This document shows, one piece after another, positions 3,149 through 56,207 of a DNA stretch of 64,000 nt. Origin of the DNA: an uncultured Candidatus Saccharibacteria bacterium (GTDB lineage Bacteria; Patescibacteriota; Minisyncoccia; Phycocordibacterales; G965230995); NCBI GenBank assembly GCA_965230995.1, contig OZ246398.1, positions 73,868-137,867 of the forward strand. The letters are read 5' to 3'. A program made the position numbers and the translations under genes. The notes beneath the pieces were generated by a model. The model was not told where the DNA came from. It did no database searches and saw only the letters and a list, made by a program, of their open reading frames with translations. The first letter of the stretch is position 1, and each line of letters opens with the position of its first letter.

Positions 3149-3151
3149 TTT

Positions 3152-4141
3152 TTAATTCGATAGATATTTTTTACCGACTGAAACTGAGATATATCCAAGA
3201 CCGATGAATATGAACCCAAGTATTATCACTAGAAATGGCCAGGCTATCGAATCTGCAAAATACTTGAATGTAATATAAGAAGAATATCCTATAAAGAATA
3301 GCGATGTGGCAACAAGAGCACTTATACTCTTTATTTTTGTTGATATTGCAAAACAGATGAAGATGACTATGAAATATAGAGCTTCACCTAAACCAGTTTT
3401 AAGTATTTCTGCAATAAGTACACCGGAAAGTATTCCTATGCTTCCGAAAAAATACAAAAGACCAGATAATCTTTTATTCCTTCCCAAAGCAAATGTCCTA
3501 CCTAGCATTAGATAAGAGATACCGACAAGTACAGTCAGGTAGCCAAACAGACTTTCCGTTCCGTTCAAACCAAATAGACCTTCAGTACCGTTCATGTCAT
3601 TTATGAACGCTCCAAGCAATGCAAAGACGAATACGGTACCATGAACAATAGAGAAAAATGATAGGATTGGGTGTTTGTGAATATAATCAAGTATCAGATA
3701 AACTACAAACAAAATAGCAAATGTAACCGCCCCCTGCCACAAAGAAGGAATAGCTGACGTCGTCTCGAATAAAGTAACAAGCGCCCCAATAGGAACAAGA
3801 ACACCTGAAATTGTATGAAATACTGCTCCAATTTGTTCGCCTGGTTTTTTGACAAATAACACAGAACCAATAGAAGCAAATACAATCCCAAGACCTAGAG
3901 TTGAGATTATTCTACCGAAAGACCCGATATCTTCCCAAATGAGCATCATAAAAAATATTATTCCGATTACAACAATTAGTGTACCAATAGAATATAATAT
4001 TTTATTTACAGTAAGCATACCTTTGGTTACAGATTGGCTATTTGCATTAGAAATACCAAAAATATTTGTTATTTCATCCTGGCGAATTTCCCCACTCTCT
4101 AATTTGCTTTTTAGCAAAGATAATAATTGTTCTTTTTCCAT
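3152..4141 (-). CDS. integral membrane protein (multi-TM, N-terminal soluble segment)
   Basis: 329 aa ORF, 8+ hydrophobic segments, no recognisable catalytic motif. Confidence 0.45.
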   Translation of the reverse strand: MEKEQLLSLLKSKLESGEIRQDEITNIFGISNANSQSVTKGMLTVNKILYSIGTLIVVIGIIFFMMLIWEDIGSFGRIISTLGLGIVFASIGSVLFVKKPGEQIGAVFHTISGVLVPIGALVTLFETTSAIPSLWQGAVTFAILFVVYLILDYIHKHPILSFFSIVHGTVFVFALLGAFINDMNGTEGLFGLNGTESLFGYLTVLVGISYLMLGRTFALGRNKRLSGLLYFFGSIGILSGVLIAEILKTGLGEALYFIVIFICFAISTKIKSISALVATSLFFIGYSSYITFKYFADSIAWPFLVIILGFIFIGLGYISVSVGKKYLSN

Positions 4142-4156
4142 TTTTTAATTATTAAT

Positions 4157-4711
4157 TTATAGCACCCAACCGATTAGCTTAAAATTGTTGTCGTTATAAT
4201 AGCTATCTGGCGATGAAATAGTATTCATCTTCATTTTTTTGCCGTCTTTCATTAGATAGTAACCTGATTCTGATCTGCCACCATCAAAAAACAAGAAGTC
4301 ACCTGAGCCTTCGTAGCTCCATTTGAGCATCACACCATCTGGAGATTGAACAAGGTCGCTAAGTTCATTTTTTTCTACTTCTGCAAGTGTAATTTCCTTA
4401 CTAATATTTTTTTCTGTATCGTGTTTAAAAATTCTGACTTTTTTACCTTTTGCAAAATTTTCAAAATCACTTCCCGCTTCTGGTTCTGTATAAGTAAGTT
4501 TTTTGTCTGCAACCTTGTAGTGAGCATTTATGAATTCGAGACAATTTGTCTTTTCATAATAGTATGATCCTCCATCGCAAGTAGCATATACAAAATCATA
4601 ATCAGTTTCGACCACCCTATTTGGAACGTAAACATACAAAGCAACCACAGCAAGGAATATAATTGGAATCAAAATTGCAATAGCAACTATATTTTTTCTT
4701 ATAAAATCCAT
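4157..4711 (-). CDS. hypothetical membrane-anchored protein (single N-terminal TM)
   Basis: ORF track gives 4157..4786. The first 25 codons translate the upstream terminator hairpin, so the start was moved to the internal Met (MDFIRKNIVAIAIL...). Confidence 0.4.
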   Translation of the reverse strand: MDFIRKNIVAIAILIPIIFLAVVALYVYVPNRVVETDYDFVYATCDGGSYYYEKTNCLEFINAHYKVADKKLTYTEPEAGSDFENFAKGKKVRIFKHDTEKNISKEITLAEVEKNELSDLVQSPDGVMLKWSYEGSGDFLFFDGGRSESGYYLMKDGKKMKMNTISSPDSYYNDNNFKLIGWVL

Positions 4712-4752
4712 AATAAGTTTTTTAATTTGTAATGTTTTTATTATAACACAAA

Positions 4753-4780
4753 ACAGCCCCGCCGTAGGCGGGGCTGTTTT
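4753..4780 (-). terminator. rho-independent terminator (bidirectional hairpin) after 4790..6196 gene
   Basis: AAAACAGCCCCGCC-GUAG-GCGGGGCUGUUUU perfect GC-rich stem flanked by A/T runs. Confidence 0.75.
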
Positions 4781-4789
4781 AATCAATTG

Positions 4790-6196
4790 TTATCTAAACA
4801 AATCTAGTAATATATCTAGTATTCCTCTTGATGATTCTCCAACTGATGCAACTGAAGAATCTGAGTCTTCAGAAGCTACTGCGGGAGCAACTATATTGAC
4901 ACCTTCTACTTTTGCAACAACTGGAGCTGACGCCTCGTCTCCTGAGTATGTAATTCTGACAGTATAGTTTTCTGATACAGGTGCATTTTTAGGAATTCTA
5001 ATCAACTGCTTTCCATCATTTGTAGAAACATCGTAAGCATAAGCGATTCCATCTTTAATTAATTCAACCAAAACTTTTTCTGAAGTCTTTAGAGATACAG
5101 ACGCCCAAGTCACAGTCATTGTTCCGCCAATTGCTGACAATACAGAATCGCTATTTGGTGACGTTATCAATATAGCCGGAGCAGGAACAGCAAGAACTTT
5201 AAACGCATCACTCTTATCCTCTGTCACCACTTCACCCTTTGTGTGAGTTACTTTGAAAAAATAGTCTGATCCAGGAACAGCATCCGCTGGGATTTTAAAT
5301 AGTTTTGATTTTATATTTGATACAAAGCTAGAAACTAGAACAGCAGATGAGTCTGTCGAGTTTACATCCCCTTTATATAGTTCAACTTTGTATGAACCGC
5401 CAACTATATTTTCAGTTGTCCATTTAACCTGTATATTTTTCCCAACCGTAACTTCTACACCAGCTGTTGGTTCAACTACAGTAATTGCAGGGAGCTTTAC
5501 TTCTGGAGCTGTGATACTAAATACACCTGACTCTGCTGACAGTGCAGCTGTTGTATTAGATTCAGCAACAACGCTGACCCTTACCTTATAATCATTTCCG
5601 GCTACCAAGGTTTTTTCTGTCTTTACTTGAAAACTCTTTGTATTAGAAATATCTTGACTTGATACAACTACTGAGCCTTTTACGAGTTCAACCTTGAGTT
5701 TCTGTGCAGCAAGCATATTTGTTGTCTTCCATATTGCTTTTATGTTTGTTCCAGCAACAAATGTTGCTCCAGCAATAGGAGCGGTGACTGTGATGGTTGG
5801 ATCTGTTGGTTTTACTCCCAAACATGAAACTTCTTTTATCTTTGCCCTAGTCAAAGGACCTGTCTTTCCATATTCTACAGATTCAGTACTTGTGTCCTTT
5901 GTTACTACTCCCACTTTCTTTTGCCAAGCGAGGAGGGCCTTTGTTGTCAAAGTTCCAAAGTACCCATATTGTCCTTCTGGAACATTAAGTGTTCCATAGT
6001 CCGTAAGGAATAGCTGAAGTTTAGTAACATCACCAACACCTGAAGCAACGCCCGCTACATCTACATCAACATCTCCTTCCCTTAAGAATTTAGTAATATT
6101 TACACATGTTGCGCTTTCTGCCTGAGCCGAAACCCCAGCGATATTAGCAGAAAATGCTAAAGCGATTACGAGAATTGTTAATAAATATTTTTTCAT
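4790..6196 (-). CDS. secreted protein: signal peptide, peptidoglycan-binding (PG_binding_1-like) domain, three tandem ~100-aa Ig-like Ser/Thr-rich repeats
   Basis: 468 aa; signal peptide MKKYLLTILVIALAFSANIAGVSA; LQLFLTDYG...GYFGTLTTKALLAWQKKVGV resembles PG-binding domain; repeats KVELVKGSVV.. / KVELYKGDV.. Confidence 0.55.
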   Translation of the reverse strand: MKKYLLTILVIALAFSANIAGVSAQAESATCVNITKFLREGDVDVDVAGVASGVGDVTKLQLFLTDYGTLNVPEGQYGYFGTLTTKALLAWQKKVGVVTKDTSTESVEYGKTGPLTRAKIKEVSCLGVKPTDPTITVTAPIAGATFVAGTNIKAIWKTTNMLAAQKLKVELVKGSVVVSSQDISNTKSFQVKTEKTLVAGNDYKVRVSVVAESNTTAALSAESGVFSITAPEVKLPAITVVEPTAGVEVTVGKNIQVKWTTENIVGGSYKVELYKGDVNSTDSSAVLVSSFVSNIKSKLFKIPADAVPGSDYFFKVTHTKGEVVTEDKSDAFKVLAVPAPAILITSPNSDSVLSAIGGTMTVTWASVSLKTSEKVLVELIKDGIAYAYDVSTNDGKQLIRIPKNAPVSENYTVRITYSGDEASAPVVAKVEGVNIVAPAVASEDSDSSVASVGESSRGILDILLDLFR

Positions 6197-6295: not shown

Positions 6296-6893
6296 AACGA
6301 CTTCGTTATTTTGTGCGCGCGGGAGGACTCGGTCACTCTCGTGGCTTTTTATTTCGTCCATTTGATGTTCCAGGACTCGGTCACGAATCACTAAGTCTGC
6401 TCATATTGCAAAGCAATATTGCGCGGACTAAGTGTTCGCGACCCCGCCTCACTTCTGAATTCTTTTTGGCAAAAAAGAATTCAGACTCCGCTTCGCTCCG
6501 TGCGTTCCGGCCTTCTCGTCCTGTCTCGAAACACCGGACAACAAAAAAGTGTACTAAGCGTACACTTTTTTGTTGTCAGTGCGCGTGCCAGGACTCGAAC
6601 CTTACAGGTTCAGTACCCCGATTGGATAATTACTTCGTCCTAGACGGACTCGTAATTATGCTCAATCGGGCTTCGAGTCCTGGACGAAAAGTCCCCCGGA
6701 CTTTTCTCACCAGCACAAAACAACTTCGTTATTTTGTGCGCGTGCCAGGACTCGAACCTTACAGGTTCAGTACCCCGATTGGATAATTACTTCGTCCTAG
6801 ACGGACTCGTAATTATGCTCAATCGGGCTTCGAGTCCTGGACGAAAAGTCCCCCGGACTTTTCTCACCAGCACAAAACAACTTCGTTATTTTG
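6296..6893 (-). repeat. tandem repeat array downstream of tRNA-Ile: two identical 157-bp units (6579-6735, 6736-6892) each ending in the 3' 22 nt of tRNA-Ile, plus degenerate older copies and long hairpins (6296-6578)
   Basis: Period 157 bp read directly from sequence (GTGCGCGTGCCAGGACTCGAACC recurs at 6579, 6736, 6893); degenerate GTGACCGAGTCCTCCCGCGCGCACAAAATAACGAAGTCG at ~6296-6330; 18-bp perfect hairpin 6541-6580; 14-bp palindrome 6456-6490. Confidence 0.85.
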
Positions 6894-6966
6894 TGCGCGT
6901 GCCAGGACTCGAACCTGGGACCACGGAGGTATAAGCTCCGCACTCTACCAACTGAGCTACACGCGC
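6894..6966 (-). tRNA. tRNA-Ile (anticodon UAU), no encoded CCA
   Basis: Reverse complement GCGCGUG-UA-GCUC-AGUUGGUA-GAGU-G-CGGAG-CUUAUAC-CUCCG-UGGUC-CCAGG-UUCGAGU-CCUGG-CACGCGC-A; canonical cloverleaf, U33, A37, anticodon UAU. Confidence 0.7.
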
Positions 6967-7056
6967 ATTTGTATCGAAATACTATCGCAAACTTTAAAAT
7001 ACAGCAAATATTGTAAAAAAGTCCATATTGCAATAAAATTAAGTTTTGAAAAACAT

Positions 7057-8409
7057 ATGAAAATCTCTTTATCATCAATACTGGTATTTTTAATATCAGC
7101 ACCGTTTATTTTACAAGCCAATATCAATTCAGAAAACACGATTAATTATTCGTTAATTTTTATCTGGATTGTAGTGATCCTATTATCAGCAAAAATTTCT
7201 AGTCTTATAGAAAAAGTCGGTATGCCTTCTGTCCTCGGTGAACTTTGTGTTGGTATTGCACTAGGAAATCTAGCGATATTTGGCTTTCCGTATCTTGAAG
7301 GTATTAAAGGAAACGAAATAATCTCCTTCCTAGCACAACTGGGTGTTGTAATTCTCCTATTTCAAATTGGGCTTGAGTCAAACATTTCAAAATTACTTGG
7401 CGTCGGTATTCGGGCAATCGGCGTAGCGTTTGCAGGAGTGCTCGCAACCTTTCTATTAATATGGGTTGCTCTTCCTTTTGTCTTTCCAAACCTATCACCC
7501 CTTGCATATATATTTTTCGCATCAACTTTTGTATCAACGTCAGTAGGTATTTCTGCAAGAGTTTTTAAAGATTTAAAAAAATCAGACAGTGAAGAATCAC
7601 GGCTCGTTCTCAGCTCTGCTGTTTTAGACGACGTCTTGGGTCTAATTGTTCTTGCAATTGCAACAGCCCTTGTGACGAACGGCAATATAAGCACCTTTGC
7701 AATTTCTACTATAGCTCTCAAGGCTATTGCATTTTTGGTTTTGTCTATAGTCATCGGACATTTCACAGCGCCAGCATTTGGAAAAGTTTTTTCAAAAATA
7801 CACACAGGAGTCGGAATGAAATTTACAATTGCAATATCATTTGCACTCGTTTTTGCTTTTTTTGCAGAGAAACTTGGACTTGCTCCGATAATCGGCGCAT
7901 TTGCTGCCGGTTTGGTTTTGGACCCTGTCCATTTTGAATCATTTAGAAAACCTAGAATCGTTAGAAAATTTGAAGAAGTTCTCGGGCAATGTAGTGAAGA
8001 TGTAAAAAGACACGTCTTTGATGCAATAGATCATCACAAAACACACGACATCGAAGACCTCGTCGAACCTCTCGGTCTTTTTCTAATTCCAATATTTTTT
8101 GTACTAACTGGAATGGCGGTTGATCTTAAAACCTTTACTGATCCAAAAATATTTTTGATTTCTTTAATTCTTACTGCACTAGCAATTGCAGGAAAGCTAA
8201 TTGCTGGACTAATTGCAAAAAAGGGTCAGAGAGTATCTGTCGGCTGGGGACTTGTACCTCGTGGCGAAGTCCAGCTTATATTTGCTACTGTTGGTTTATC
8301 GCTCGGTATTTTAAATGAACAAATGTACACCACTGTTGTTCTTGTCGTTTTGCTCACATCTCTTATCACGCCAATAGTTTTGCCGTTTACTCTCAAAAAG
8401 AAAATCTAG
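7057..8409 (+). CDS. cation:proton antiporter (CPA1/CPA2 family Na+/H+ or K+/H+ exchanger)
   Basis: 450 aa, ~12 TM segments, GLESNISKLLGVGIRAIGVAFAGVLATF region typical of Na_H_Exchanger fold; cytosolic insertion between TM blocks. Confidence 0.65.
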   Translation: MKISLSSILVFLISAPFILQANINSENTINYSLIFIWIVVILLSAKISSLIEKVGMPSVLGELCVGIALGNLAIFGFPYLEGIKGNEIISFLAQLGVVILLFQIGLESNISKLLGVGIRAIGVAFAGVLATFLLIWVALPFVFPNLSPLAYIFFASTFVSTSVGISARVFKDLKKSDSEESRLVLSSAVLDDVLGLIVLAIATALVTNGNISTFAISTIALKAIAFLVLSIVIGHFTAPAFGKVFSKIHTGVGMKFTIAISFALVFAFFAEKLGLAPIIGAFAAGLVLDPVHFESFRKPRIVRKFEEVLGQCSEDVKRHVFDAIDHHKTHDIEDLVEPLGLFLIPIFFVLTGMAVDLKTFTDPKIFLISLILTALAIAGKLIAGLIAKKGQRVSVGWGLVPRGEVQLIFATVGLSLGILNEQMYTTVVLVVLLTSLITPIVLPFTLKKKI

Positions 8410-11670: not shown

Positions 11671-12054
11671 GGGGATGATCGGCTTCGACAAGAAGTTCAA
11701 TATATATGCGCAAAGTGAAGCTCCAGCAACTTCTTAAAAGGCTGGAAAAACATAAGTGCAGACAATTCTGCAGCAACTCCTTCTCCATATTTTGGAACAA
11801 AGGATTTTGCTTTCGCTCTAGCTTAATAGCGGGCGCGCCCAGCCACCTCTCGTCTCGTGAGATGGTCTTGGGTGTCATTTTCAGAGACTCGGTGTTTGCA
11901 TTTCTCTAGGCTAACACTTAAACAAAAGAGATCGGTATAGAATTGTTTTGTTATTTTCAAAGGTTCTATATCTAAATCATAAAAAATAACTAAACTTTGT
12001 AGACACATATACATTTCCTTCTCTGGACGGGGGTTCGATTCCCCCCATCTCCAC
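11671..12054 (+). ncRNA. ssrA: tmRNA (SsrA)
   Basis: 5' GGGGAUGAUCGGCUUCGACA and 3' GGACGGGGGUUCGAUUCCCCCCAUCUCCAC form the tRNA-like acceptor/T arm; internal tag frame ...GTKDFAFALA followed by UAA UAG (11824-11829); terminator hairpin 12061-12090. Confidence 0.85.
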
Positions 12055-12252
12055 ATTTCAAAAATCAGCCCTTTGGGGCGATTTTTGTTATGTGGAGATG
12101 AGAAAGGTCTGGGAGACCTTTTGTGGGGGAATCGAAAGGCTTTTGTGTTGATTTTAGAGTTCGAGGAATGAGAACGAATAAAATCACCAAAAGGCATACT
12201 GTTCATGTAATGAGAGATTCCCCCATCTCTATCACAAAATGAAATACCCTTA

Positions 12253-14310: not shown

Positions 14311-14408
14311 TATTGATAAATAATATAACGTCTTAATAAAAAATAAAACCCGTTTAAAATCCCATTGCCTATTGCGAGGGTAAACAACAATCACTAATAC
14401 TTAACCAA

Positions 14409-14454
14409 TTGACACCACTAAATAAATACATAGTCTTTAAATCAGGCCAAGGAG
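14409..14454 (+). promoter_or_regulatory. promoter and RBS of GC-rich island 1 (TTGACA ... AAGGAGG)
   Basis: TTGACA at 14409-14414, AT-rich -10 region, AAGGAGG 14448-14454 followed by GTG 14461. Confidence 0.4.
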
Positions 14455-14460
14455 GAATTG

Positions 14461-14750
14461 TGACATTAGTACAAGTCCTTGCGGTTCAGAAACAGAGCGA
14501 ACAACCGCTAACCAAAGGAATGCTCCCAGGGATCATTGCAGAATGCCACAGGTGGCCATGGCCCGGCAGAACATCTGTTCGGTATACCGCCACAAACGGC
14601 AACACCATTGTGGCAACCATGCTACAGATTAACGGTAGCCACACTGTCACGAGCATGCAAAATGCCGTACAGCTTATGCTCACCAGGGGAGAATCTGAAT
14701 TCGTAACCAAAGAAAACGGGGGGCTCATTCTATGGACTGTCGTTCCGTAA
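14461..14750 (+). CDS. hypothetical protein encoded in GC-rich island 1
   Basis: 96 aa from GTG after AAGGAGG (the ORF track uses a longer frame from 14409). Codon usage and G+C are clearly higher than neighbours. No recognisable motifs. Confidence 0.35.
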
Positions 14751-14777
14751 TGCCGGAAGACCTCCGACAGAACGGAG

Positions 14778-14804
14778 AAGGCGCGCCACGGGCGCGCCTT
14801 TCCT
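14778..14804 (+). terminator. rho-independent terminator (GGCGCGCC palindrome hairpin) ending island 1
   Basis: AAGGCGCGCC-ACG-GGCGCGCCUU then UCCUCAUUU. Confidence 0.6.
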
Positions 14805-14811
14805 CATTTAT

Positions 14812-15939: not shown

Positions 15940-15980
15940 AAAAGAAGTCTATCATGACAATATGCAAGGATTAAAGCTAT

Positions 15981-16009
15981 TTGACTTTATACACAAAGAT
16001 TGTATTATT
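15981..16009 (+). promoter_or_regulatory. sigma70-like promoter, first of three homologous promoters in GC-rich island 2 (TTGACT-N16/17-TATTAT)
   Basis: TTGACTTTATACACAAAGATTGTATTATT; near-identical copy at 16466-16496 and related copy at 16991-17019 (TTTACT-N17-TATAAT). Confidence 0.5.
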
Positions 16010-16048
16010 ATTTTGGCTTAGAGTTCCTAACACAAGCGGAGAAAAGCG

Positions 16049-16396
16049 ATGAGTGAAGTCACTGTAACCCAGCTCGTTAAACATGAGCACTTCCTGAGGG
16101 ACATCGGGTGTCTGAAGGGGTTCCTCAGTCATCTCGGCTGGCATCTTCCGGAAGATGTATTCGTGGTATGCCTACATCTTACATGGAAGGAAATCACCCT
16201 ACTCATGGTCAAGGAAACAATGGGGATCGGAGTTCCACATAAGTGCACAGTGATGGGTACCACCTCTATCACGGCGGAGAACGTTGTCCGCATGATTGAC
16301 TGGACCTTCAGACACCATTACGAACTCATCGTGAGACCTCCGGACAACAAGTTCCAGTTCCGCTTCATTCATCAACTGCAATCCCCTGGCGCCTAG
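16049..16396 (+). CDS. hypothetical protein A of GC-rich island 2
   Basis: 115 aa, GGAG RBS, GC-rich codons, followed by terminator hairpin 16424-16449. Confidence 0.4.
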   Translation: MSEVTVTQLVKHEHFLRDIGCLKGFLSHLGWHLPEDVFVVCLHLTWKEITLLMVKETMGIGVPHKCTVMGTTSITAENVVRMIDWTFRHHYELIVRPPDNKFQFRFIHQLQSPGA

Positions 16397-16537
16397 GAAG
16401 CGCCACCCTACCCACCAAGACAGCCCACCAAGGCGCGTCTGGTGGGTTTGTCATTTATGCAGAACTTTACTTTATGTATAAAGATTGTATTATAATTTTG
16501 GCTTAGAAGTTCTGAACTCACAACCGGAGACCAGGAA

Positions 16538-16900
16538 ATGGCACCCGCCACAACCAAAGATATCCACATTGGACGCGAACAATTGTATGTGTTCTTAAGT
16601 GGAAAGGATGGACACGGTGGTCTAGAGGCGCAATTCGGAGACAACGGAGTAGTCACCCTACACGTTATGCATCGAGGAGAAGGTTCTGCAAAAACCATCA
16701 CGATCCAAGTAACGATGGAGAGACGTGTTGGTTTCCAGGAAGAAAAGCTAGTGAAGGTGATCGAAGAGTTTGACGGAGAGGAAATCAATGGATGGATTTC
16801 CTCCCTGATGAAGGGAAACAACATTCCACTCTTCTTCTTACCACCCAACCGCTTCCACCTGTTCCATTTCAAAATCGATGATATACCCCCCGGCGTCTAG
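16538..16900 (+). CDS. hypothetical protein B of GC-rich island 2
   Basis: 120 aa, own promoter copy and GGAGACC RBS, followed by terminator 16928-16953 homologous to the first. Confidence 0.4.
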   Translation: MAPATTKDIHIGREQLYVFLSGKDGHGGLEAQFGDNGVVTLHVMHRGEGSAKTITIQVTMERRVGFQEEKLVKVIEEFDGEEINGWISSLMKGNNIPLFFLPPNRFHLFHFKIDDIPPGV

Positions 16901-17065
16901 GAGACGCCACCCCACCCACCAAGACAGCCCACCGAGGCACGTCTGGTGGGTTTGTCATTTATGGCTAAAATATGTGGCTTTTTTGTACTATTTACTTTTA
17001 AACGCGTTTGTTGTATAATATATGAGAAACAGTACCGTACAACAAACCAATTAGGAGACGCTACC

Positions 17066-17563
17066 ATGCGTTACTTCACCATCGTTCTATTCGCGGTCAC
17101 GATGTTCATCACCGGTAGCGGGTGCATTGCCTACTACCAGATCAACGGAAAGGAAGGAGTCCTCGCCGTTCCACCCCTTGTGGGTACGCCGGTGGTGGTT
17201 GTCGCTTCCTGCGACCGCTGTCACTACCGTCACTGCCGTTGCGAGCAGTATGAATACCGCTGGCAGTGCGAGATCTGCAACCAGTACTTTGGTCGGCTTG
17301 CCGACCAATACTGGGACGGAGGACGTCGCACCTGCCGGTGGTGCCATCATGAAAAGTGGCCCTACCGCGCGTGGCAGTGCACAGTGTGCCATGGTTACTA
17401 CTGGCCAGTGGATGTTCGCAACAACATACACCGTGGCCATAACACTTGCTGGCGGTGTCTCGTGAGAGACAACATGGAGTGCGAGCAAGGCTGTAACGAA
17501 CCAACAACACTGCCCTGTCGCAGGTGGTATCATAGCTATTTCGGACCACCTCCTCCGAAATAG
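17066..17563 (+). CDS. cysteine-rich (about 20 Cys, multiple CxxC) secreted or lipoprotein-like protein of GC-rich island 2
   Basis: Start at internal ATG after AGGAGACG RBS (ORF track starts at 16946). N-terminal TM/lipobox-like FITGSGC; CDRCHYRHCRC, CEIC, CRWC, CTVC, CWRC; terminator 17567-17615. Confidence 0.45.
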   Translation: MRYFTIVLFAVTMFITGSGCIAYYQINGKEGVLAVPPLVGTPVVVVASCDRCHYRHCRCEQYEYRWQCEICNQYFGRLADQYWDGGRRTCRWCHHEKWPYRAWQCTVCHGYYWPVDVRNNIHRGHNTCWRCLVRDNMECEQGCNEPTTLPCRRWYHSYFGPPPPK

Positions 17564-17631
17564 CCCCCCGCCAGAGAGAACCCGCCAGTACACGGCGCCT
17601 CTCTCTGGCGGGTTTTCTTTTGTCTTAAAAT

Positions 17632-18087
17632 CTATTTCTTCTTTAGATTGTTTTCGATAATAGTTTTGTATATATCACCTCTTGTGACAATACCGACTAA
17701 TTTGCCATTTTCATCCATTACGGGCATCCTGTGAATACTTCGTGCGAGCATAATTGCGCCAACTTTCATAATAGGATCATCTGGGGAAACAGAAACGACT
17801 TCACGCGACATAAATCTTTCGATTGGGTTCTTTCGTATTTCTTGTATTTTTGATTCTCTTTTTTCTGGATCAGTATAGCTCTCTGGGTTTTCGTAGAAAC
17901 TTCGGTAATAAGGGAAAAGTACTTTGTATAAATCTTTGTCAGAAATCATACCGATAACATCACCGCTTTCATTAACGACAGGACAACCTTTTATACCGCT
18001 TTTTAACAGAAAAGTGGCCGCGTCTTCATAAGTAGTATCAAAAGGTAGAGTAAGCACTGGCGAATGCATTAATTCTTTTGTTTTCAT
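17632..18087 (-). CDS. CBS-domain pair protein
   Basis: 151 aa; two CBS repeats (VMTRDV.. / GIVTRGDIYK), no fused catalytic domain. Confidence 0.7.
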   Translation of the reverse strand: MKTKELMHSPVLTLPFDTTYEDAATFLLKSGIKGCPVVNESGDVIGMISDKDLYKVLFPYYRSFYENPESYTDPEKRESKIQEIRKNPIERFMSREVVSVSPDDPIMKVGAIMLARSIHRMPVMDENGKLVGIVTRGDIYKTIIENNLKKK

Positions 18088-21248: not shown

Positions 21249-21641
21249 TTATATTTTTTCTTTTTTAATTGAAATTAAAAACACAGCAAAAAATCCAACG
21301 ATGCCGCCGACTATATCCATTAGAATATCAGAGACTGTATCAGGCACATACCATTTTGTATAAGGGACGATATCAAAAACATATTCGAACACTTCCCAGC
21401 CAAGACCCACTAAAAGTGATGCTCCGATAGTATAAAAAAGTATTTCTTTAATAGAAAATTTTGTTTTATCAAACAGAAAAAGATAACCTCCAAGGGCAAT
21501 AAATAATCCCCCTAGAAAATGCATAACAATATCAGTCCAAAGAAATCTCCAATACAAAAAATAAGTCAGAGAAATATTATGAAGTATTGCAATTAAGGCA
21601 ATTAAAAAGAACAGTCCGACAATATATTTTCCTCTGGTCAT
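21249..21641 (-). CDS. small polytopic membrane protein, VanZ-like
   Basis: 130 aa, 4 TM; LLVGLGWEVFEYVFD...SDILMDIVGGIVGF resembles the VanZ family signature. Confidence 0.4.
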   Translation of the reverse strand: MTRGKYIVGLFFLIALIAILHNISLTYFLYWRFLWTDIVMHFLGGLFIALGGYLFLFDKTKFSIKEILFYTIGASLLVGLGWEVFEYVFDIVPYTKWYVPDTVSDILMDIVGGIVGFFAVFLISIKKEKI

Positions 21642-21954
21642 ACATATATTCTACCTTTTTTCTTCCAAACAAAAAACCCTTCGCAAGCGATGGGTTTTTT
21701 GTAGGGTGTCTGGTAATATTGCCCTAGATAAAATTCTAGGTGGGTGCCCTCAGCAGTCATTTCTCTGAAGAAATTAATCCTCATCGATACAAATGCAATT
21801 TGAGCTCCCTTACAATATGTTAACTAGATAATATTCCAGCTCACCCTTCTCTATTATACACCTAAATTTTTGATAGCAAAACTTTTTGCAAATTCAAAAC
21901 AAATTCCGTGGCAAGTAAAGATATATTATTATAAAAAATCCTGTACTATTTATA

Positions 21955-22252
21955 GCGGAGACTCGGTAGGGTCACTTAACTTAGTGGGAAGCAAAGGGTT
22001 ACTGACTTCTCGAGCCGAGCGAGCAACAGTCAAAACTCTTCGCCCACGGAGATAGATTTCTCTGTCTTGGGGGCTTGAGAGGCACTCATTGCGGAGGGTT
22101 TGTTCTATCTCCATCGCCGTCCTTTTTGCTTTATGGGGTAGGAACGCGTGCACAGGGATTCGCACTTGGTTTTCGCTTTTGTCCACAACACCAAGCATCC
22201 CGAACACGCCGACATGGGGAGGCTTACGCGAGTCTCCCCTGTCTTTATATAT
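21955..22252. ncRNA. candidate structured non-coding RNA of unknown class (not RNase P, not tmRNA)
   Basis: ~300-nt non-coding stretch, locally GC-rich relative to flanks, closed by a perfect 9-bp terminal helix (GGAGACUCG 21958.. / CGAGUCUCC ..22250), bracketed by hairpin terminators at 21667-21700 and 22256-22280. Strand undetermined. Confidence 0.3.
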
Positions 22253-22285
22253 ACAAAAACAGGCTTTGGGCCTGTTTCTGAAATT

Positions 22286-22891
22286 TTATTCAAGTATTCC
22301 GTCTAGGTTCACATCGTAGAGAATTTCTTCTTGCACCAATCTGTAATTTACAATTTCCCCTTCTTTAAACCAGAGATTTATTTCACCTTTTGCTTCGTCC
22401 ACTGTACCCGATGCATGAATTAGATTTCTTATTGCTCTACCAGATGTGTCGGCCATTAAATATGAATCAAGAACAAAGTCACCTCTGATAGTACCAACAT
22501 CAGATGATCTTGGTTCTGTACCTCCAGTTATTTTTCTTACTACTTCGACACTGTGCACACCCTGCCAAACCATAGCAATGACAGGCCCACTTGTAAGATA
22601 TTTTTTAAGGACTTCAACGACATTTTTTCCAACTGCAATTGGGTCATTTGATGGCGGTGTTTGTCCTTTCTTTTTGTAGCTTTCTATAGATTTTTCACCG
22701 ACTTTTCTCATCCATTCTGGATCAAGGAGATAATGCTTTTCGATCAAATCCGCTGTGGGCACAATCATTTTCATTGCAACCAGCTTTAGTCCAGCTCTTT
22801 CGTATCTTTTTATTATTTCTCCTACTAGAGTCCTTTGTATTGCATCTGGTTTAATAACGACTAAGGTTCTCTCGTTCTTTAAATTATCCAT
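22286..22891 (-). CDS. ndk: nucleoside diphosphate kinase with ~35-aa internal insertion
   Basis: ERTLVVIKPDAIQRTLVGEIIKRYE...GPVIAMVWQG...GTIRGDF..NLIHASG; insertion DPEWMRKVGEKSIESYKKKGQTPPSND. Confidence 0.85.
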   Translation of the reverse strand: MDNLKNERTLVVIKPDAIQRTLVGEIIKRYERAGLKLVAMKMIVPTADLIEKHYLLDPEWMRKVGEKSIESYKKKGQTPPSNDPIAVGKNVVEVLKKYLTSGPVIAMVWQGVHSVEVVRKITGGTEPRSSDVGTIRGDFVLDSYLMADTSGRAIRNLIHASGTVDEAKGEINLWFKEGEIVNYRLVQEEILYDVNLDGILE

Positions 22892-22953: not shown

Positions 22954-25719
22954 CTATAGATTCTTTGTTGCCTTGTATTTTGCCATTATGGCTTCGTCGA
23001 CTTCTTTTCTGTCTTTACCATATTTTAGACCAGATAATTCTTTGAGAGGTTCGACTTTCTCTTTGTTGCCCTGTTCTGGAGGTAAAATACCTATACTAAA
23101 AGGTTTGATTGGCGTCCCATCCGACAACATTTTTATATAGGCATTTCTATTTTCAATATTCATAAGTTCCCTTGCAGTAAATACAGGTGTAAATTGTTTT
23201 TCAAGGAATTCGGCGTCTTCGGAGCCGACTCTAAAGGCGACCATCGAACCCACGTTACCAAAAACAGAATCACTAATCTTTTCATCAAGCTGTGCGATAA
23301 ATTGATGAGCAATATTTAGAGAAAGTTTATATTTTCTGGCTTCTGACAAAATTGTTGAGATAGAATCCGTGGTAATGTTCTGGAACTCGTCTATATATAG
23401 ATAGAACGGTGGCAAATCCTGACCAAAGGAATCAACACGAGAAAGTGCCGCCATAAGTATTTTACCTACAATAATGAGACCAAGAAGGTTTGCATTTATA
23501 TCACCCAGTCTTCCCTTTGAAAGGTTAACCAAAAGTATTTTCTTTTGATCCATTATTTCACGGAAATTAAAAGATGATTTTTCTTGAGCTACTATCGGAC
23601 GCATAATATCGTTCGAGAGAAAGACGTCGAATTTGCTCGTAATGTATGGCACGATGTTTTTGATATCAGCCTCACCACCAGCTTTGTCTGCGATGTCTCG
23701 CCAGTATCCAACAATTACTGGATTTTTACATCTAGAAAGTTTTAATTCTCTAAAGCCTTTGTCAGCAAGAACCCTCGAAACATCGAGTAGAGTGTTTCCA
23801 GTTTCTGGATCTTCCATCACAAGCATCACTGCATTTCTAAAATACTGTTCGAACATAGGACCACCCGCAACTTTCATATCAAACAATTTGTTGAATATAG
23901 AAAGCATTTCGTTTACCACGAAAGTTTTTTGTTCTGGAAATCTTCTGTCGTATTCAAGCATATTGAGAGAAATCGGTCTCTCAACATTACTTGGATCAAA
24001 ATAGATGACGTCTTCGTATCTTTCTTCTGGTATGGTTGCCAAAATGTCTTGGATATCCGAGCCGTGTGGATCAATCATACAAACTCCCTCTCCGTTTTTG
24101 ATATCCTGAACAACCAAATTTTTGAGGAAGGTTGATTTTCCAGTACCTGTCTGACCGATTGTGTATATGTGTCTCAATCGATCCTCTTTGGACATATATA
24201 TTGGGGTCTCAGAGCTTGAATGTCTGTTTACACCAAGCAAAATTCCCTCTTTAGTGAGCCCTGCTGGAGCCGGAGCCGTAACTAATCTATTGAATTTAAG
24301 ATTACTTGCTGTTTCTATTGCTTTTGTCTGGAAGTGCATTATTGTTGCAACCTCGGAAAGAGAAAGCGGAATATTTTGTGAAGAATTAAAAGTTCGGAAA
24401 GTAAAATTTCTAAGCATATCTGTGAGCGACCCTCGTTTTAATTCCTTCCATACAAAACTGTTGCCTTTTGTGTTTTCAAATTGATTAAAGGCAGATTCGA
24501 TGTCACCCAAAATATCTCTTGCATCTTTTTCTTCTTCTGCTGATACTACAATTCTGATATTTGTTTGAACGATCGGACTACTGATTTTCTTTTTTATTTC
24601 GTCTATAACAGTCTGATCGATTGGATCTTTTTTTTCATCTTCACCTTCTTTTTTCTTTATTGTTTTAAAAATATCTTTGGCTGTTTTGAAAAGCTCCCCT
24701 CCAATAGAATCTGGGATATCTATTGATTCGGACACGTCTTTCCCTTTCATAATTTGCTCGAGGGCATAAGAATATTTTTTTATATAATTATCACCAACTG
24801 GTTTAAAGACAAACTGTATAGATGCTCCCTCGCCTTCTTTTTTCATTTTTGAAAAAGAATTGAGTATTGCGTTTATTGGGTCATGATCAAACAAGTCATA
24901 TGTCTTTATTGGATATATTGGATTTCCACCTGATGTAGCGCAAGCTCCAACGGTGTGACCGTCTTCATTGAAAATATTATAATCGTCTCTTTTTGGTATG
25001 AGCCTTGCTGATGGATATACAGATAGAATATGTTTTTCAAATAATTCTTGTCTTGAATCTGGCATTGCAACAAAAAAAGAATATTCTTCGCCGACATTTG
25101 GCATTGCGAGCTCCATTGTAAAATATTCTAGATTTGGTTCTTTTCCTGTTTGTTGTGAGATAGACATCAAACCTGAAAATAATTGCTCCATCGAAGAAAT
25201 TAATTCTTTGAGTGGTTTTTTATCTTCGTTTTTTTGTTCGGGCAATTGTATTTCAAACAAAGTCATTTTTAATGCTTTCGTGGTCGTATCTTTCGGACTA
25301 AGCCTTGTTTCGTATCCACCTTTTACGAGAGCAACCAACATTCTATGAAAATCGTCCTCGATATGGGGATTTTTCATCTTTGAGATAACAGAAAGAGCAT
25401 TATATACACCTCTTGTTTTTACAAGTGCCATCAATTCGGAAAGTTTTGTATCGTGTTCTTCTGGAGAAATCTTCAAAACAAAACCGGATATTTCGACTTC
25501 AGTCATCTGAGATTTTGGAGCAAGAACATCGTGTGGAAGTTTTTTTCTGTGTAAATCTATTTCGGCTTTGACTAATTTTTCTGTGTCGGGAACCATACCA
25601 GCGTTTTCTGCTGTCTTTTCATGTTCGGCTACTCGTTTCCTGAGATATTCAAGTTCCTCGTAAGGAGTACTAAATTTTTTTTGTTCTTTAAAGAGATCCA
25701 TCGTCCTATTATATACCAT
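22954..25719 (-). CDS. large P-loop ATPase, VirB4/TrbE/CagE-like (type IV secretion or conjugation family, DUF87-type)
   Basis: 921 aa, no TM; Walker A IGQTGTGKST at mid-protein, Walker B LYIDEFQN, C-terminal ATPase domain. Family assignment from motif spacing only. Confidence 0.4.
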   Translation of the reverse strand: MVYNRTMDLFKEQKKFSTPYEELEYLRKRVAEHEKTAENAGMVPDTEKLVKAEIDLHRKKLPHDVLAPKSQMTEVEISGFVLKISPEEHDTKLSELMALVKTRGVYNALSVISKMKNPHIEDDFHRMLVALVKGGYETRLSPKDTTTKALKMTLFEIQLPEQKNEDKKPLKELISSMEQLFSGLMSISQQTGKEPNLEYFTMELAMPNVGEEYSFFVAMPDSRQELFEKHILSVYPSARLIPKRDDYNIFNEDGHTVGACATSGGNPIYPIKTYDLFDHDPINAILNSFSKMKKEGEGASIQFVFKPVGDNYIKKYSYALEQIMKGKDVSESIDIPDSIGGELFKTAKDIFKTIKKKEGEDEKKDPIDQTVIDEIKKKISSPIVQTNIRIVVSAEEEKDARDILGDIESAFNQFENTKGNSFVWKELKRGSLTDMLRNFTFRTFNSSQNIPLSLSEVATIMHFQTKAIETASNLKFNRLVTAPAPAGLTKEGILLGVNRHSSSETPIYMSKEDRLRHIYTIGQTGTGKSTFLKNLVVQDIKNGEGVCMIDPHGSDIQDILATIPEERYEDVIYFDPSNVERPISLNMLEYDRRFPEQKTFVVNEMLSIFNKLFDMKVAGGPMFEQYFRNAVMLVMEDPETGNTLLDVSRVLADKGFRELKLSRCKNPVIVGYWRDIADKAGGEADIKNIVPYITSKFDVFLSNDIMRPIVAQEKSSFNFREIMDQKKILLVNLSKGRLGDINANLLGLIIVGKILMAALSRVDSFGQDLPPFYLYIDEFQNITTDSISTILSEARKYKLSLNIAHQFIAQLDEKISDSVFGNVGSMVAFRVGSEDAEFLEKQFTPVFTARELMNIENRNAYIKMLSDGTPIKPFSIGILPPEQGNKEKVEPLKELSGLKYGKDRKEVDEAIMAKYKATKNL

Positions 25720-25755: not shown

Positions 25756-26526
25756 TTATATCTTTGTTAAAACGATTGGTCCGTCTTTTGTGATCGCAAC
25801 AGTATGTTCGAAATGTGCACTTCTCTTGCCGTCTGCTGTTTTGTAAGTGTAGCCATCATCTGCCAAAATTATCTTTCCTTTTCCTTCGCAAAGCATAGGT
25901 TCTATTGCAATGACCATACCGACAGTTATTTTTTCTCCTGTTCCTTTTTTACCTTTGTTTGGAACATAAGGATCTTCGTGAACCTCGTAACCAACACCGT
26001 GACCCGATAGACCTTCGGCAACTGACAATCCTGCTTTCTTTGCAATATTTCCGATCTCGTAACCAATATCACCAATATTTCCACCAATTCTTATTGCCTT
26101 TATACCAGCTTCGAGAGATTCTCTGGTTGTTTCAACAAGCGAAACAGCCTTTGGGTCTCCACTACCTGTAATAACAGTTCTGGCAGAATCCAAAATAAAA
26201 TTTTTATGAGCAAGACCCATATCGAGACTGACAACGTCCCCATCTTTTATAATCTTTTCTTTTTCGTTGGATATGCCGTGTACGATTTCATCATTTACAG
26301 AAACACAAAGCGCTGAAGGATAAGGGCGATCTGCTCCGTGAGGAGTGTAACCCAAAAAGGCACTCGAATCGCCATAATCTTTTACCATTTTTTCCGCTTT
26401 GTCATTTAATTCTCTTGCAGTAACACCTGGCACAACCATTTTTTCAAGCTCATTTAAAATCAAGGCCAATCTCTTGCCCCCCTCTTTCATTATTTCAATT
26501 TCTTTTTCTGTTTTAAGCCTGATCAT
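25756..26526 (-). CDS. map: methionine aminopeptidase type I
   Basis: 256 aa; pita-bread fold motifs (DGDVVSLDMG, HGIG-like VHGIS, FEHTVAI). Confidence 0.9.
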   Translation of the reverse strand: MIRLKTEKEIEIMKEGGKRLALILNELEKMVVPGVTARELNDKAEKMVKDYGDSSAFLGYTPHGADRPYPSALCVSVNDEIVHGISNEKEKIIKDGDVVSLDMGLAHKNFILDSARTVITGSGDPKAVSLVETTRESLEAGIKAIRIGGNIGDIGYEIGNIAKKAGLSVAEGLSGHGVGYEVHEDPYVPNKGKKGTGEKITVGMVIAIEPMLCEGKGKIILADDGYTYKTADGKRSAHFEHTVAITKDGPIVLTKI

Positions 26527-27130
26527 TAAATAATTTTGCTTTTAATTCCGAAAAGACGCCTTCAATATCCTGATTACCATTTACTTCTATGAATCTAAAC
26601 TTATTCTTATTTCTAAAATAATCAATAGCTGGAATTACAAACTCTCTGTACCAATCCATTCTCTTTTCAACATCGCTTATGAATTGATCGTCTTTTCTGC
26701 CTTCGGTATGTGCCCGATGGAGTATTCTCCTCTTTGATTCTTCGATATCTGTGTTTATAAATACAAGTGCTGGTCTATCTATACCATAGAAATCAAAAGC
26801 TGATTCCATCAATTGCGCGTCCTCAACCCTCCTCGGAGAACCATCAATTATTATGTGCTCGTCTCCTTTTATGTTATTTACTAGATAATCAACCCAAAGC
26901 ATAACTTGAAGAAAGCTTGGCTGAAGACCACCTTTTTTGTTTATCTCTCTCGATAGGTCTGCACTAAAACCAGTTCCATCCTTCCACATAGAACGAAACA
27001 AATCTCCCATCACTAGATTAACAATCGCCGTATCAGGGTCTTGCTTTGCTAAATATTCCTTGAGCAATTTAACCTGGGTGCCCTTTCCGCATCCCGAAGG
27101 TCCAAGAAACATTAGCGCAAGTCTTTTCAT
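26513..27130 (-). CDS. adk: adenylate kinase-like NMP kinase (paralog 1, short LID, no zinc motif)
   Basis: P-loop GPSGCGKGTQ, NMP-binding GDLFRS, IIDGSPRR; position after secY as in spc operon. Confidence 0.7.
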   Translation of the reverse strand: MKRLALMFLGPSGCGKGTQVKLLKEYLAKQDPDTAIVNLVMGDLFRSMWKDGTGFSADLSREINKKGGLQPSFLQVMLWVDYLVNNIKGDEHIIIDGSPRRVEDAQLMESAFDFYGIDRPALVFINTDIEESKRRILHRAHTEGRKDDQFISDVEKRMDWYREFVIPAIDYFRNKNKFRFIEVNGNQDIEGVFSELKAKLFNDQA

Positions 27131-27727
27131 TTATATATTTATTTTGCTTATTATTTCCTTGTGCACGTCTTCAATTGGTTGCTGTCCATTTACTTCGATG
27201 AAATGATAGTCTGGATTATTTCTGTAAAAATTTACAGCGGGTAGAACCATCGTGTCATACCAATTGACTCTTTTCTTTATGGCTTCTTCGGTATCGTCTT
27301 CTCTTTTTCTTGCGAGTAGTCTTTTGTGTGATTCTTCTTTTGAAACATCAATTACAATAAAATATGGCTTTTCTCTTTTGTAGAATTTCATAGCGGAATC
27401 AAGAGATTGTGCCTCTACAAGAGTTCTTGGTGAACCATCAATAAAAATATGCTCGTCACCTTTTATATTTTTCACGAAAGCTCCTGCCCAAAGCCAAACA
27501 GCGAGAAAATTAGGCTGAAGTTCGCCTCTTTTCATTATTTCATCTGATATGGTGCTTGAATAGTTGTCTTTTTTGTCTATAAATTCTCTAAATCCGTCAC
27601 CAGAATAGTAATTAAAAATATTTTCATTAGGAAATTTTTTAACGATATATTCATTTAATAATTTCCTTTGGGTGCCCTTTCCGCATCCCGATCTTCCTGC
27701 AAATATGAATGTGTGTTTTTTATCCAT
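27131..27727 (-). CDS. adk: adenylate kinase-like NMP kinase (paralog 2)
   Basis: GRSGCGKGTQ, GDGFRE, IDGSPRT; directly abuts paralog 1 (27130/27131). Confidence 0.7.
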   Translation of the reverse strand: MDKKHTFIFAGRSGCGKGTQRKLLNEYIVKKFPNENIFNYYSGDGFREFIDKKDNYSSTISDEIMKRGELQPNFLAVWLWAGAFVKNIKGDEHIFIDGSPRTLVEAQSLDSAMKFYKREKPYFIVIDVSKEESHKRLLARKREDDTEEAIKKRVNWYDTMVLPAVNFYRNNPDYHFIEVNGQQPIEDVHKEIISKINI

Positions 27728-37128: not shown

Positions 37129-37356
37129 TCACTTTTTGATTTCGAACCCGAAATCGTCTGCGAGTTTGATTACCTCGCTAGAGTCCGGGTTTTCCGCCAG
37201 CATCGCGCCAACTTTCATTGACGCATCCTTGTGGTTTGGGGAACACCCAAACACCTTTCTGAACCGCTTGAGTCGGGAATACCTCCTCGAGCGGGTGAGG
37301 CCGTAAACGGCCTGCATGAGAATCATCCCGGCAATGACAGCCAACACATAAAGCAT
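37129..37356 (-). CDS. small hypothetical protein with N-terminal TM helix, in GC-rich island 3 inserted between rpsS and rplB
   Basis: 75 aa; GC-rich codons; TATAAT promoter on minus strand (~37395-37400) and GAGGT RBS; GC hairpin downstream (~37090-37115). Confidence 0.35.
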   Translation of the reverse strand: MLYVLAVIAGMILMQAVYGLTRSRRYSRLKRFRKVFGCSPNHKDASMKVGAMLAENPDSSEVIKLADDFGFEIKK

Positions 37357-42407: not shown

Positions 42408-42640
42408 ATAAATTATTATTAATTGATTAACTAAGAGAAGTGAGCGCGCGAGAAAGGCTCAGTACTCCCAATTAATTCTGATAATTCTTATAAATTCTGT
42501 GCTTTCGTTTGAATGATAACAAACAAAAACAACGCAAAATGCGGTACCGCCCATAATAGCAGAAAGCAAGAGAGTGTCAATAGGATTAAAGGGTTTTTCT
42601 GATTTTTTTGATACTTTTGAAAATTAGAAAAATGAGCAAA

Positions 42641-42667
42641 AGAAAAAAACCGGCTTTCGCCGGTTTT
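42641..42667 (-). terminator. terminator after fusA
   Basis: AAAAAAACCGGC-UUUC-GCCGGUUUUUUU. Confidence 0.75.
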
Positions 42668-42673
42668 TTTCTT

Positions 42674-46829: not shown

Positions 46830-46842
46830 ATTAATTGTAAAA

Positions 46843-46870
46843 GCGCCCCGCCTTCGGCGGGGCGCTTTTA
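46843..46870 (+). terminator. terminator after rpmB
   Basis: AAAAGCGCCCCGCC-UUCG-GCGGGGCGCUUUU. Confidence 0.75.
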
Positions 46871-46958
46871 CTTTACTTTTACAAAAAATAATATAGGGTT
46901 TTACCCAGAGTCAGACATCCGTCTGACAAAAAAGAACCTCAAACAAAGACTGAAAGCA

Positions 46959-47570: not shown

Positions 47571-47632
47571 CCCCCTCGCCAAAAAAGAAATTGGTGAGAA
47601 CCCGGCTCCGCACACAATGCGGAGCCGAAACT

Positions 47633-55341: not shown

Positions 55342-55478
55342 ACAATTTTTTATATGATTTATATACTATAATATTTTTATCTGTTATGCAAATTTCACAA
55401 AAATATTTGAAAATTTAAATATAAAAATGGCTTTTTTTATAGTTTTTTCAAGATTTAGTGATATTTAGTTATGTTTAT

Positions 55479-55513
55479 TTGACATAATTAAACGCCTAGT
55501 GTAAAGTCATGCA
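55479..55513 (+). promoter_or_regulatory. strong sigma70-like promoter of GC-rich island 5 (TTGACA-N17-TG-TAAAGT)
   Basis: TTGACATAATTAAACGCCTAGTGTAAAGT. Confidence 0.5.
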
Positions 55514-55812: not shown

Positions 55813-55861
55813 TCTGTCGCAGGATGGTTCCTGCCTGATGAGCCAATAATGGCGAAACAGA
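55813..55861 (+). ncRNA. hammerhead ribozyme copy 1, type III topology (closed stems I and II, open stem III), predicted cleavage after C55818
   Basis: UCUGU-C^-GCAGG-AUGGUU-CCUGC-CUGAUGA-GCCA-AUAA-UGGC-GAAAC-AGA; all catalytic-core nucleotides present. Confidence 0.8.
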
Positions 55862-56176: not shown

Positions 56177-56207
56177 ACAATTCCTTTGTAACTATTGGGA
56201 GGTTTGT

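Follow-up and report, generated by a model that had tools for sequence, protein, structure and literature searches.

A conserved 6S-like RNA candidate and a GC-rich orphan block in the ndk–DUF2238 gap of a Patescibacteria genome

Introduction

The gap between ndk (22286-22891, minus strand) and a gene for a DUF2238/VanZ-like membrane protein contains a conserved gene for an RNA of ~180 nt, here called unit A, which runs on the minus strand from ~21852 to 21665 with its own promoter and terminator and is shared by Patescibacteria of the Paceibacteria type. Its base-paired structure, its strand, its transcription signals, and its conservation are all borne out by the comparison of related loci. 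Beside it lies a GC-rich block, unit B, which has sharp boundaries and is unique to this genome among all the sequences searched. The gap (21650-22285) is best described as a composite of two unrelated units, because its alignment with relatives matches 21660-21922 and leaves out the GC island. Taken as a whole, that is, with unit A as a 6S-type RNA and unit B as an insertion, this explanation has in our judgment somewhat better than even chances of being right.

A preliminary description of the region, made from the sequence alone, had placed a single candidate non-coding RNA on the GC-rich segment. It was right in that the gap codes for no protein and harbors a genuine, 6S-shaped RNA, but this RNA occupies the other segment (~21665-21852) and is read from the opposite strand. 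The earlier reading was misplaced; unit A is made up of the very features that had been assigned to the island as its promoter and terminator.

Genomic setting of the gap

The window, meaning the whole 64-kb stretch of DNA that was analyzed, belongs to a Patescibacteria genome of the Paceibacteria type, ~0.74 Mb in size and of low GC content (37.7%). The gap is located at the end of a cluster of ribosomal protein genes with secY, adk, and map, in which every gene is on the minus strand (Table 1). The ndk gene is followed, 6 nt past its stop at 22286, by a terminator hairpin. Elsewhere in the window, a search of its whole length with Rfam at gathering located the tmRNA at 11671-12056. The RNase P RNA is at 60524-60841, with 99.3 bits, just below its gathering score of 100.

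The relatives used for comparison were the ndk loci of 58 GTDB species representatives, together with contigs carrying the closest Ndk proteins of a large protein database. Judged by Ndk, the closest relative is the locus L061 (84% identical), followed by L063 and L064 (78%); all three are from other species than the source of the window and not from strains of it. As far as the gene order of these relatives is concerned, the succession ndk, DUF2238, beta-CASP is retained in L061 and in L063/L064. L061 carries a different hairpin at the position matching the ndk terminator of the window. When the gap was aligned with those of L061 and L063, the conserved half was found to be 21660-21922, and the GC island was missing.

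Table 1. Features of the ndk–DUF2238 gap, in window coordinates.
Feature	Position	Strand	Basis or remark
DUF2238/VanZ-like membrane protein gene	21249..21641	minus	start ~25 nt after the unit A terminator
Unit A intrinsic terminator, AAAAAACCCAUCGCUUGCGAAGGGUUUUUU	21665..21700	minus	hairpin 21671-21700
Unit A core RNA, 143 nt	21704..21846	minus	covariance model match of 183 bits; 17 members; covariation
Unit A promoter	21853..21879	minus	-35 TTGCTA (21879-21874), 15-nt spacer, -10 TATAAT (21858-21853) preceded by TG
Possible left target-site duplication, CTATTTAT	21946..21953		read from the sequence; weak
Unit B, GC-rich orphan block, 287 bp, 54% GC	21954..22240		composition; absent from all relatives
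Left terminal inverted-repeat arm, AGCGGAGACTCG	21954..21965		perfect core 21957-21965
Right terminal inverted-repeat arm, CGAGTCTCCCCT	22229..22240		perfect core 22229-22237
Possible right target-site duplication, GTCTTTAT	22241..22248		read from the sequence; weak
ndk terminator hairpin, AAACAGGCCCAAAGCCTGTTT, with U-run	22256..22280	minus	inverted repeat; hairpin on both strands

Unit A, a conserved RNA gene

Unit A starts 6-7 nt after its TATAAT box. This -10 box is conserved in all the aligned members of the family, the 76 nt upstream of the RNA are 74% identical to the corresponding sequence of L061, and the same TTGCTA/TATAAT pair is found in front of the RNase P RNA of the window. The AT-rich stretch that the preliminary description had taken for a plus-strand promoter of the GC island is thus the promoter of the minus-strand unit A. 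At the other end of the gene, every member has a terminator hairpin with a sequence of its own. The two hairpins with U/A tracts which had been said to bracket the island, at 21671-21700 and 22256-22280, do exist, but the former is the terminator of unit A and not a boundary of the island.

Searches with nhmmer, then with a covariance model (R1), retrieved unit A in 17 Paceibacteria loci, always on the strand of ndk. According to the covariance model, the 64-kb window has one copy. A further R1 match in the window, at 42585-42678, was rejected as a false positive composed of an AT-rich stretch and a terminator.

No other sequence of the locus is as well conserved as the core of unit A, which is 89.5% identical between the window and L061, as compared with 76.8% for ndk and 62.1% for DUF2238. 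The pattern of changes supports a base-paired RNA. In an alignment of the 17 sequences (A6), compensatory double changes are seen at 13 of the 17 consensus pairs, and 89.6% of the cells are paired, vs. 76.8% after shuffling of the columns. The covariation score reaches 0.458, compared to 0.235 for shuffled alignments and at most 0.22 when the register is slid, and none of 500 shuffles attained the observed values. All 17 members fold with 14-33 long-range pairs in the closing stem, even though the sequences of its arms differ greatly. The folding energy also distinguishes the strands, with a z-score of -5.1 for unit A (-5.4 and -6.7 in other estimates) against -0.85 for the antisense.

Resemblance of unit A to 6S RNA

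In the predicted structure, the 5' and 3' ends of unit A pair into a long rod-like closing stem, formed by GGGUGAGCUGGAAUAUU and AAUAUUACCAGACACCC. This stem encloses a large internal loop with few invariant nucleotides: on the 5' strand, the loop opens with an invariant UC, and on the 3' strand, an invariant CACCCACC leads into a small 3'-side hairpin (CCUAGA/UCUAGG). The apical hairpin is of variable length and is clamped by invariant G-C pairs, the GGG/CCC flanks being the same in all members.

In 6S RNA (SsrS), a long and irregular closing stem opens into a large central loop bordered by G-C pairs, beyond which lies an apical stem-loop. Because the closing stem, the large loop, the 3'-side hairpin, and the apical stem of unit A match this architecture, we consider that unit A may be the 6S-type RNA of this lineage, an assignment that rests on architecture and conservation pattern and to which we give an even chance. 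The likeness to 6S RNA (SsrS; RF00013) extends to several features. Both RNAs measure ~150-200 nt and are closed by a long, irregular pairing of their 5' and 3' ends. In either RNA, the large internal loop at the center is bordered by G-C pairs and carries a small hairpin on its 3' strand; a variable stem-loop forms the apex, and conservation is centered on the loop. The rod-like shape with a closing stem, a large bubble, and an apical stem is supported by covariation in unit A, which moreover has one copy per region searched.

There are also differences. With ~143 nt, the core of unit A falls short of the length of most 6S RNAs, and the gene ends in a canonical intrinsic terminator. In addition, unit A is not recognized by the Rfam model of 6S RNA: RF00013, whose gathering score is 46.4 bits, gave no match at E<=10 to unit A of the window or to that of L019. 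The member at L008 scored 15.8 bits with RF00013 (E 0.24), below the gathering score, this E-value being the best of all families. The match vanished once the search bounds were changed, and it was dropped as support for a 6S identity. Among the literature searched, no report linking 6S RNA to CPR/Patescibacteria was found.

If unit A is of the 6S type, it would be a stable RNA, imitate an open promoter, and bind RNA polymerase holoenzyme. A plausible start site for the product RNA would then be the invariant UC at the border between the stem and the loop. Since DUF2238 begins ~25 nt after the terminator of unit A, read-through of this terminator is probable, and unit A is probably co-transcribed with the downstream DUF2238 and beta-CASP genes. 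In E. coli, ssrS is co-transcribed with ygfA; in both cases, a co-oriented gene lies close downstream.

Leader or free-standing RNA

The linkage of unit A to DUF2238 and beta-CASP speaks against a 6S RNA insofar as it also fits a cis-acting leader. As in the window, the order unit A, DUF2238, beta-CASP is found in 11 of the 16 loci of relatives, with a spacing of 4-52 nt, and in L009 and L041 unit A precedes DUF2238/beta-CASP even though ndk is not adjacent. A serious rival, of rather low probability in our view, is therefore that unit A is a riboswitch- or attenuator-like leader controlling read-through into an operon encoding DUF2238 and the beta-CASP ribonuclease. The terminator would be well placed for such a role, being located between unit A and the start codon with no space left for a separate promoter, and the invariant nucleotides of unit A are grouped around a three-way junction, as they would be in an aptamer. 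In these respects, namely the position before a conserved operon, the three-way junction, and the terminator that follows, unit A resembles terminating riboswitch leaders.

It departs from them on several other points. With 15-33 bp, the closing stem is very stable and greatly exceeds the length of a switchable P1. The terminators of the members are unrelated in sequence and share no conserved alternative pairing with the RNA; in other words, a conserved, mutually exclusive choice between aptamer and terminator pairing, or between terminator and antiterminator, was not found among the members. No riboswitch family of Rfam matches unit A. Finally, L061, L005, L014, and L022 keep unit A without having DUF2238 next to it, a point in favor of a function in trans. 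On the question of a free-standing RNA, unit A has its own promoter and terminator and occurs in these four loci without an adjacent DUF2238, but the linkage is kept in the 11 loci mentioned above.

The probability that we leave to neither the 6S-type RNA nor the leader goes to another role in trans. One broader alternative, which we regard as unlikely, concerns both units at once. Unit A would be an undescribed RNA class of Patescibacteria that governs the DUF2238/beta-CASP operon and is not a homolog of 6S RNA, and unit B a structured RNA of recent acquisition. Under such a non-6S reading, unit A may for example be a leader responding to a protein or a metabolite, or serve the ribonuclease as substrate or partner.

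Unit B, a discrete GC-rich block

The GC-rich segment pointed out by the preliminary description (21955-22252) is indeed a sharp island, with ~52-55% GC at ~21950-22250 as compared with ~24-37% in its flanks (54% against ~31% for 21954-22240). The perfect 9-bp inverted repeat reported at its ends, GGAGACTCG/CGAGTCTCC, is also present, at 21957-21965 and 22229-22237; the window contains two exact copies of this 9-mer and no others. The repeat can be extended to 12 nt with one mismatch (11/12, 92% complementary). Among the 152 perfect 9-bp inverted-repeat pairs of the window with a spacing of 200-400 nt, this pair has the largest GC step between the inside and the flanks, +0.22, the runner-up having +0.11. 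Because its repeat brackets the largest GC step of the window, unit B is regarded as a discrete unit with defined ends.

Directly outside the repeats, CTATTTAT and GTCTTTAT agree at six of eight positions and thus form imperfect 8-bp direct repeats flanking the block. The estimated chance of such a match is ~0.015 in this register, and ~0.1 if other registers and lengths are allowed; read from the sequence, these repeats are weak evidence for a target-site duplication.

The predicted fold of unit B is multi-branched. The description of the 9-bp repeat as a terminal helix closing the segment holds for one strand: the helix closes the minimum free energy (MFE) fold on the minus strand, but on the plus strand its 3' arm is taken up by a local hairpin, the right arm pairing there with 22216-22224 in what is scored as a terminator-like site. 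The z-scores of the fold are -1.7 for the plus strand and -2.5 for the minus strand (-3.4 in another estimate). Those of the GC-rich ORF blocks of the window range from 0.0 to -3.4. Since unit B lies inside this range, its z-score is not evidence of a selected structure, and the island does not stand out statistically as a special structure.

As regards transcription signals, a TTGnnn -35 box like that of the RNase P RNA and unit A was not found for unit B on either strand, and a promoter scan detected none. The minus strand is also devoid of a proper terminator. ARAGORN reported nothing in the region, and unit B shows neither tRNA- or tmRNA-like features nor tandem repeats.

The preliminary description had seen no convincing ORF in the gap. 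One frame is in fact open across the entire island, over 98-112 codons on the minus strand, that is, on the strand of all the neighboring genes. The judgment itself is nevertheless broadly upheld by the frequency of 7.9% with which a fully open frame arises in shuffled sequences and by the lack of a ribosome-binding site ahead of either start of the candidate ORF (82-85 aa, 22198/22207 to 21950).

Search for relatives of unit B

In L061, L063, and L064, the syntenic site, which is flanked by the ndk terminator and the unit A promoter, does not contain unit B. Neither blastn nor nhmmer found anything similar in the 58 ndk loci of GTDB species representatives, nor did they find a second copy in the rest of the 64-kb window. 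No match to plasmids and phages was obtained either (blastn, 'distant' mode). The comparison with related genomes that had been suggested for the island thus shows it to be absent and the conserved part of the gap to be unit A. The Rfam search proposed at the same time gave no match to the island at gathering or at E<=10; for 21650-22285 as a whole, what appears at E<=10 is terminator-driven noise.

The open frame of unit B was searched as well. A translated multi-seed scan gave no match in JGI metagenomes or viral contigs, and a word-indexed search found no homolog among 5.8 billion predicted proteins. A full HMMER search over 1.84 billion representatives gave a single match, to a 3795-aa surface protein, which was rejected as a chance alignment to the tandem repeats of this protein. 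Pfam has no match for any small ORF of unit B, and no gene is called at this place in public assemblies.

Metagenomes were also scanned for elements having the terminal repeats of unit B. The eight matches obtained were all judged to be due to chance, and all are in contigs of uniformly high GC content.

Several GC-rich segments were considered as possible homologs and discarded. The GC islands that follow ndk in L005 and L014 correspond to an antisense tRNA and rpmB, and the gap of L061 aligns to unit A only. The other GC islands of the window were also set aside as members of a class with unit B, on the grounds that they have no sequence similarity to it and look like small genes with ribosome-binding sites. 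That this genome carries other GC-rich blocks without a recognizable family is a point in favor of unit B as an insertion.

Origin of unit B

We consider it an even bet that unit B is a lineage-specific insertion of foreign or mobile DNA. Its 287 bp, bounded by 12-nt inverted repeats, would have been inserted after the ndk terminator and before the unit A promoter, and they are most likely the relic of a laterally acquired or mobile DNA, such as a non-autonomous MITE-like element. We infer both a mobile or foreign origin and the absence of a function. Like bacterial MITEs and non-autonomous IS derivatives of the Correia, RUP, or ERIC type, unit B is small and non-coding. It also shares with them inverted repeats at the edges, a possible short duplication, presence or absence between related genomes, and an intergenic position beside a terminator. 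Its terminal inverted repeats coincide with the GC step, and its absence from L061, L063, and L064, which are different species, concerns a site that is otherwise conserved.

However, MITEs form multi-copy families, whereas only one copy of unit B is known and elements sharing its ends did not turn up; neither the window nor the pattern scan of metagenomes showed dispersed copies or an autonomous IS related to it. Its repeats are short (9-12 nt), its GC content is far above that of the host, and neither a transposase nor a parent element was seen. Besides, a high GC content in an AT-rich genome and ends able to pair would equally be expected of a young structured RNA.

A genuine lineage-specific structured small RNA, that is, an orphan ncRNA possibly acquired by lateral transfer, is indeed the first rival, though we hold it to be improbable. 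The 9-bp repeat would then be the terminal helix, and the transcript would be either a minus-strand RNA following the ndk terminator or a plus-strand RNA ending at the hairpins 22216-22239 and 22256-22280. GC enrichment is typical of the structured RNAs of this genome, RNase P RNA and tmRNA being GC islands too. The inverted repeat is located exactly at the composition boundaries, the minus-strand MFE fold is closed by the 9-bp helix, with a z-score of -3.4 or -2.5, the plus strand has terminator-like hairpins, and a coding signal was not found. Against this, the collections searched hold no relative of unit B and hence offer no covariation, and no Rfam family matches it even at E<=10. The z-score is within the range of the GC-rich ORF blocks, and the TTGCTA/TATAAT promoter of RNase P RNA and unit A is lacking, the promoter scan having come back empty. 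In a plus-strand transcript, the 3' hairpin would compete with formation of the terminal helix, and a minus-strand transcript would lack a proper terminator. The island therefore does not bear out its initial designation as an ncRNA, whether SRP, 6S, or novel, as far as Rfam and conservation in the relatives and databases searched are concerned.

Still less probable is an orphan small protein gene, or a laterally acquired gene fragment, of 82-85 aa on the minus strand, akin to the other GC-rich orphan ORFs of this genome. Such a gene would fit the frame that is open over the entire block on the strand of the neighbors, and this frame has a weak codon-position bias (GC1 0.61, GC2 0.45, purine1 0.59); moreover, the window has other GC-rich blocks that could plausibly be small genes, without any Pfam family being assigned to them. 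However, the openness of the frame is reproduced by shuffling at the frequency given above. Unlike the other small GC-rich genes of the window, which carry GAGG or AAGGAGG, the candidate has no ribosome-binding site. It is not called in public assemblies, and it has no Pfam match and, apart from the chance repeat match, no homolog in either protein collection.

The proposal that unit B might serve this genome as its long-form SRP RNA or its 6S RNA is effectively refuted. Its ~290 nt are close to the size of a long SRP RNA, and Rfam finds neither SRP RNA nor 6S RNA in the 64-kb window. However, at E<=10 neither strand is matched by an SRP or a 6S model. An essential RNA should be conserved, yet nothing similar exists in the collections searched. 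The predicted fold has several branches and does not form a rod with a central bubble, and a 6S-like RNA, unit A, already adjoins. The likeness to SRP RNA, be it 4.5S or of the long Bacillus type, is limited to the length of the long form and the pairable ends: the small and large SRP models of Rfam do not match, the helix-8 GNRA/AGCA motif could not be placed on reading the sequence, and there is no conservation in relatives.

Other identities can be dismissed. The preliminary description rightly excluded RNase P RNA and tmRNA, whose true copies are elsewhere in the window (see above). A retron ncRNA, a group I or II intron, and an omega-RNA/IS605 remnant were considered and rejected, no RT, IscB, or TnpB gene being adjacent; Rfam gives no intron or HEARO match here, and no protein remnant was found.

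Implications

Unit B calls for caution in the annotation of such genomes. A GC-rich block with pairing ends in an AT-rich genome resembles an RNA gene; here, such a block mimics one while having no relatives, right beside a real RNA gene, unit A.

Patescibacteria (CPR) have tiny genomes and, to our knowledge, very few regulatory RNAs have been described in them. Unit A appears to represent an unannotated and well-supported 6S-like RNA family of Paceibacteria. Supported by covariation, more conserved than the neighboring genes, 6S-shaped, and undetected by Rfam, it would fill a gap in annotation, and the alignment of its 17 sequences provides a seed for a new or extended family model. It would also offer a handle on the global control of transcription in organisms that are not culturable alone.

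Variable gene order around the 6S-like RNA gene

The surroundings of unit A, the conserved RNA gene of 6S-like shape lying between ndk and the DUF2238 gene, differ among relatives. In L061, the locus of the closest relative, an inserted ORF of 1175 aa (2180-5707), for which no Pfam family was found, separates unit A from DUF2238. This makes the region from ndk to DUF2238 a hotspot of lineage-specific insertions. In two other relatives' loci, L005 (4775-5139) and the same region of L014, an antisense tRNA and an rpmB (L28) gene are located in the intergenic stretch that follows ndk and unit A. Their presence accounts for the GC islands of these two loci and shows that the gene order after unit A is not fixed. 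At L063, the public call of the DUF2238 ORF (6786-7283) gives a protein of 162 aa, vs. about 130 aa elsewhere, and extends into unit A at its 3' part. As the RNA gene lacks an annotation, the start codon of this ORF has probably been placed wrongly.

On the other side of ndk, the conserved ribosomal-protein/secY/map cluster ends with a gene for a DUF8128/TraG-like ATPase and a tandem pair of adenylate kinase genes (see table), an unusual addition to this cluster.

Other features of the window

A class A RNase P RNA (60524-60841) has a textbook promoter, TTGCTA-17-TGATATAAT, and a terminator. Its score, 99.3 bits, is slightly under the Rfam gathering score of 100. The gene is overlooked by a standard annotation run.

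A perfect tandem repeat (6579-6916; 157-nt period, 2.2 copies, 100% identity) directly adjoins a tRNA (6894-6966, minus strand), and its repeat unit opens with the reverse complement of a tRNA T-arm/acceptor 3' half. This repeat could be an att-like duplication of an integrative element or else an assembly artefact.

Finally, several blocks of the window are GC-rich compared with the genome (37.7% GC). Some carry internal repeats, namely a 77-nt pair within 15980-17700 and a 50-nt pair within 55400-56470. No Pfam family was found for the ORFs of the blocks listed in the table. The ORFs of 113 and 75 aa are plausible small genes. These GC-rich blocks may have been acquired laterally.

Genes, ORFs and GC-rich blocks of the window
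Feature	Position	Strand	Remark
DUF8128/TraG-like ATPase gene	22954-25719		921 aa; cluster end, just upstream of ndk
Adenylate kinase genes, two in tandem	26513-27727		cluster end, just upstream of ndk
GC-rich block	14395-14811		50-62% GC
GC-rich block	15940-17631		50-62% GC
GC-rich block	37129-37356		50-62% GC
GC-rich block	46830-47632		50-62% GC
GC-rich block	55342-56488		50-62% GC
113-aa ORF	14409-14750	plus	clear RBS and terminator
75-aa ORF	37129-37356	minus	clear RBS and terminator; within ribosomal-protein operon
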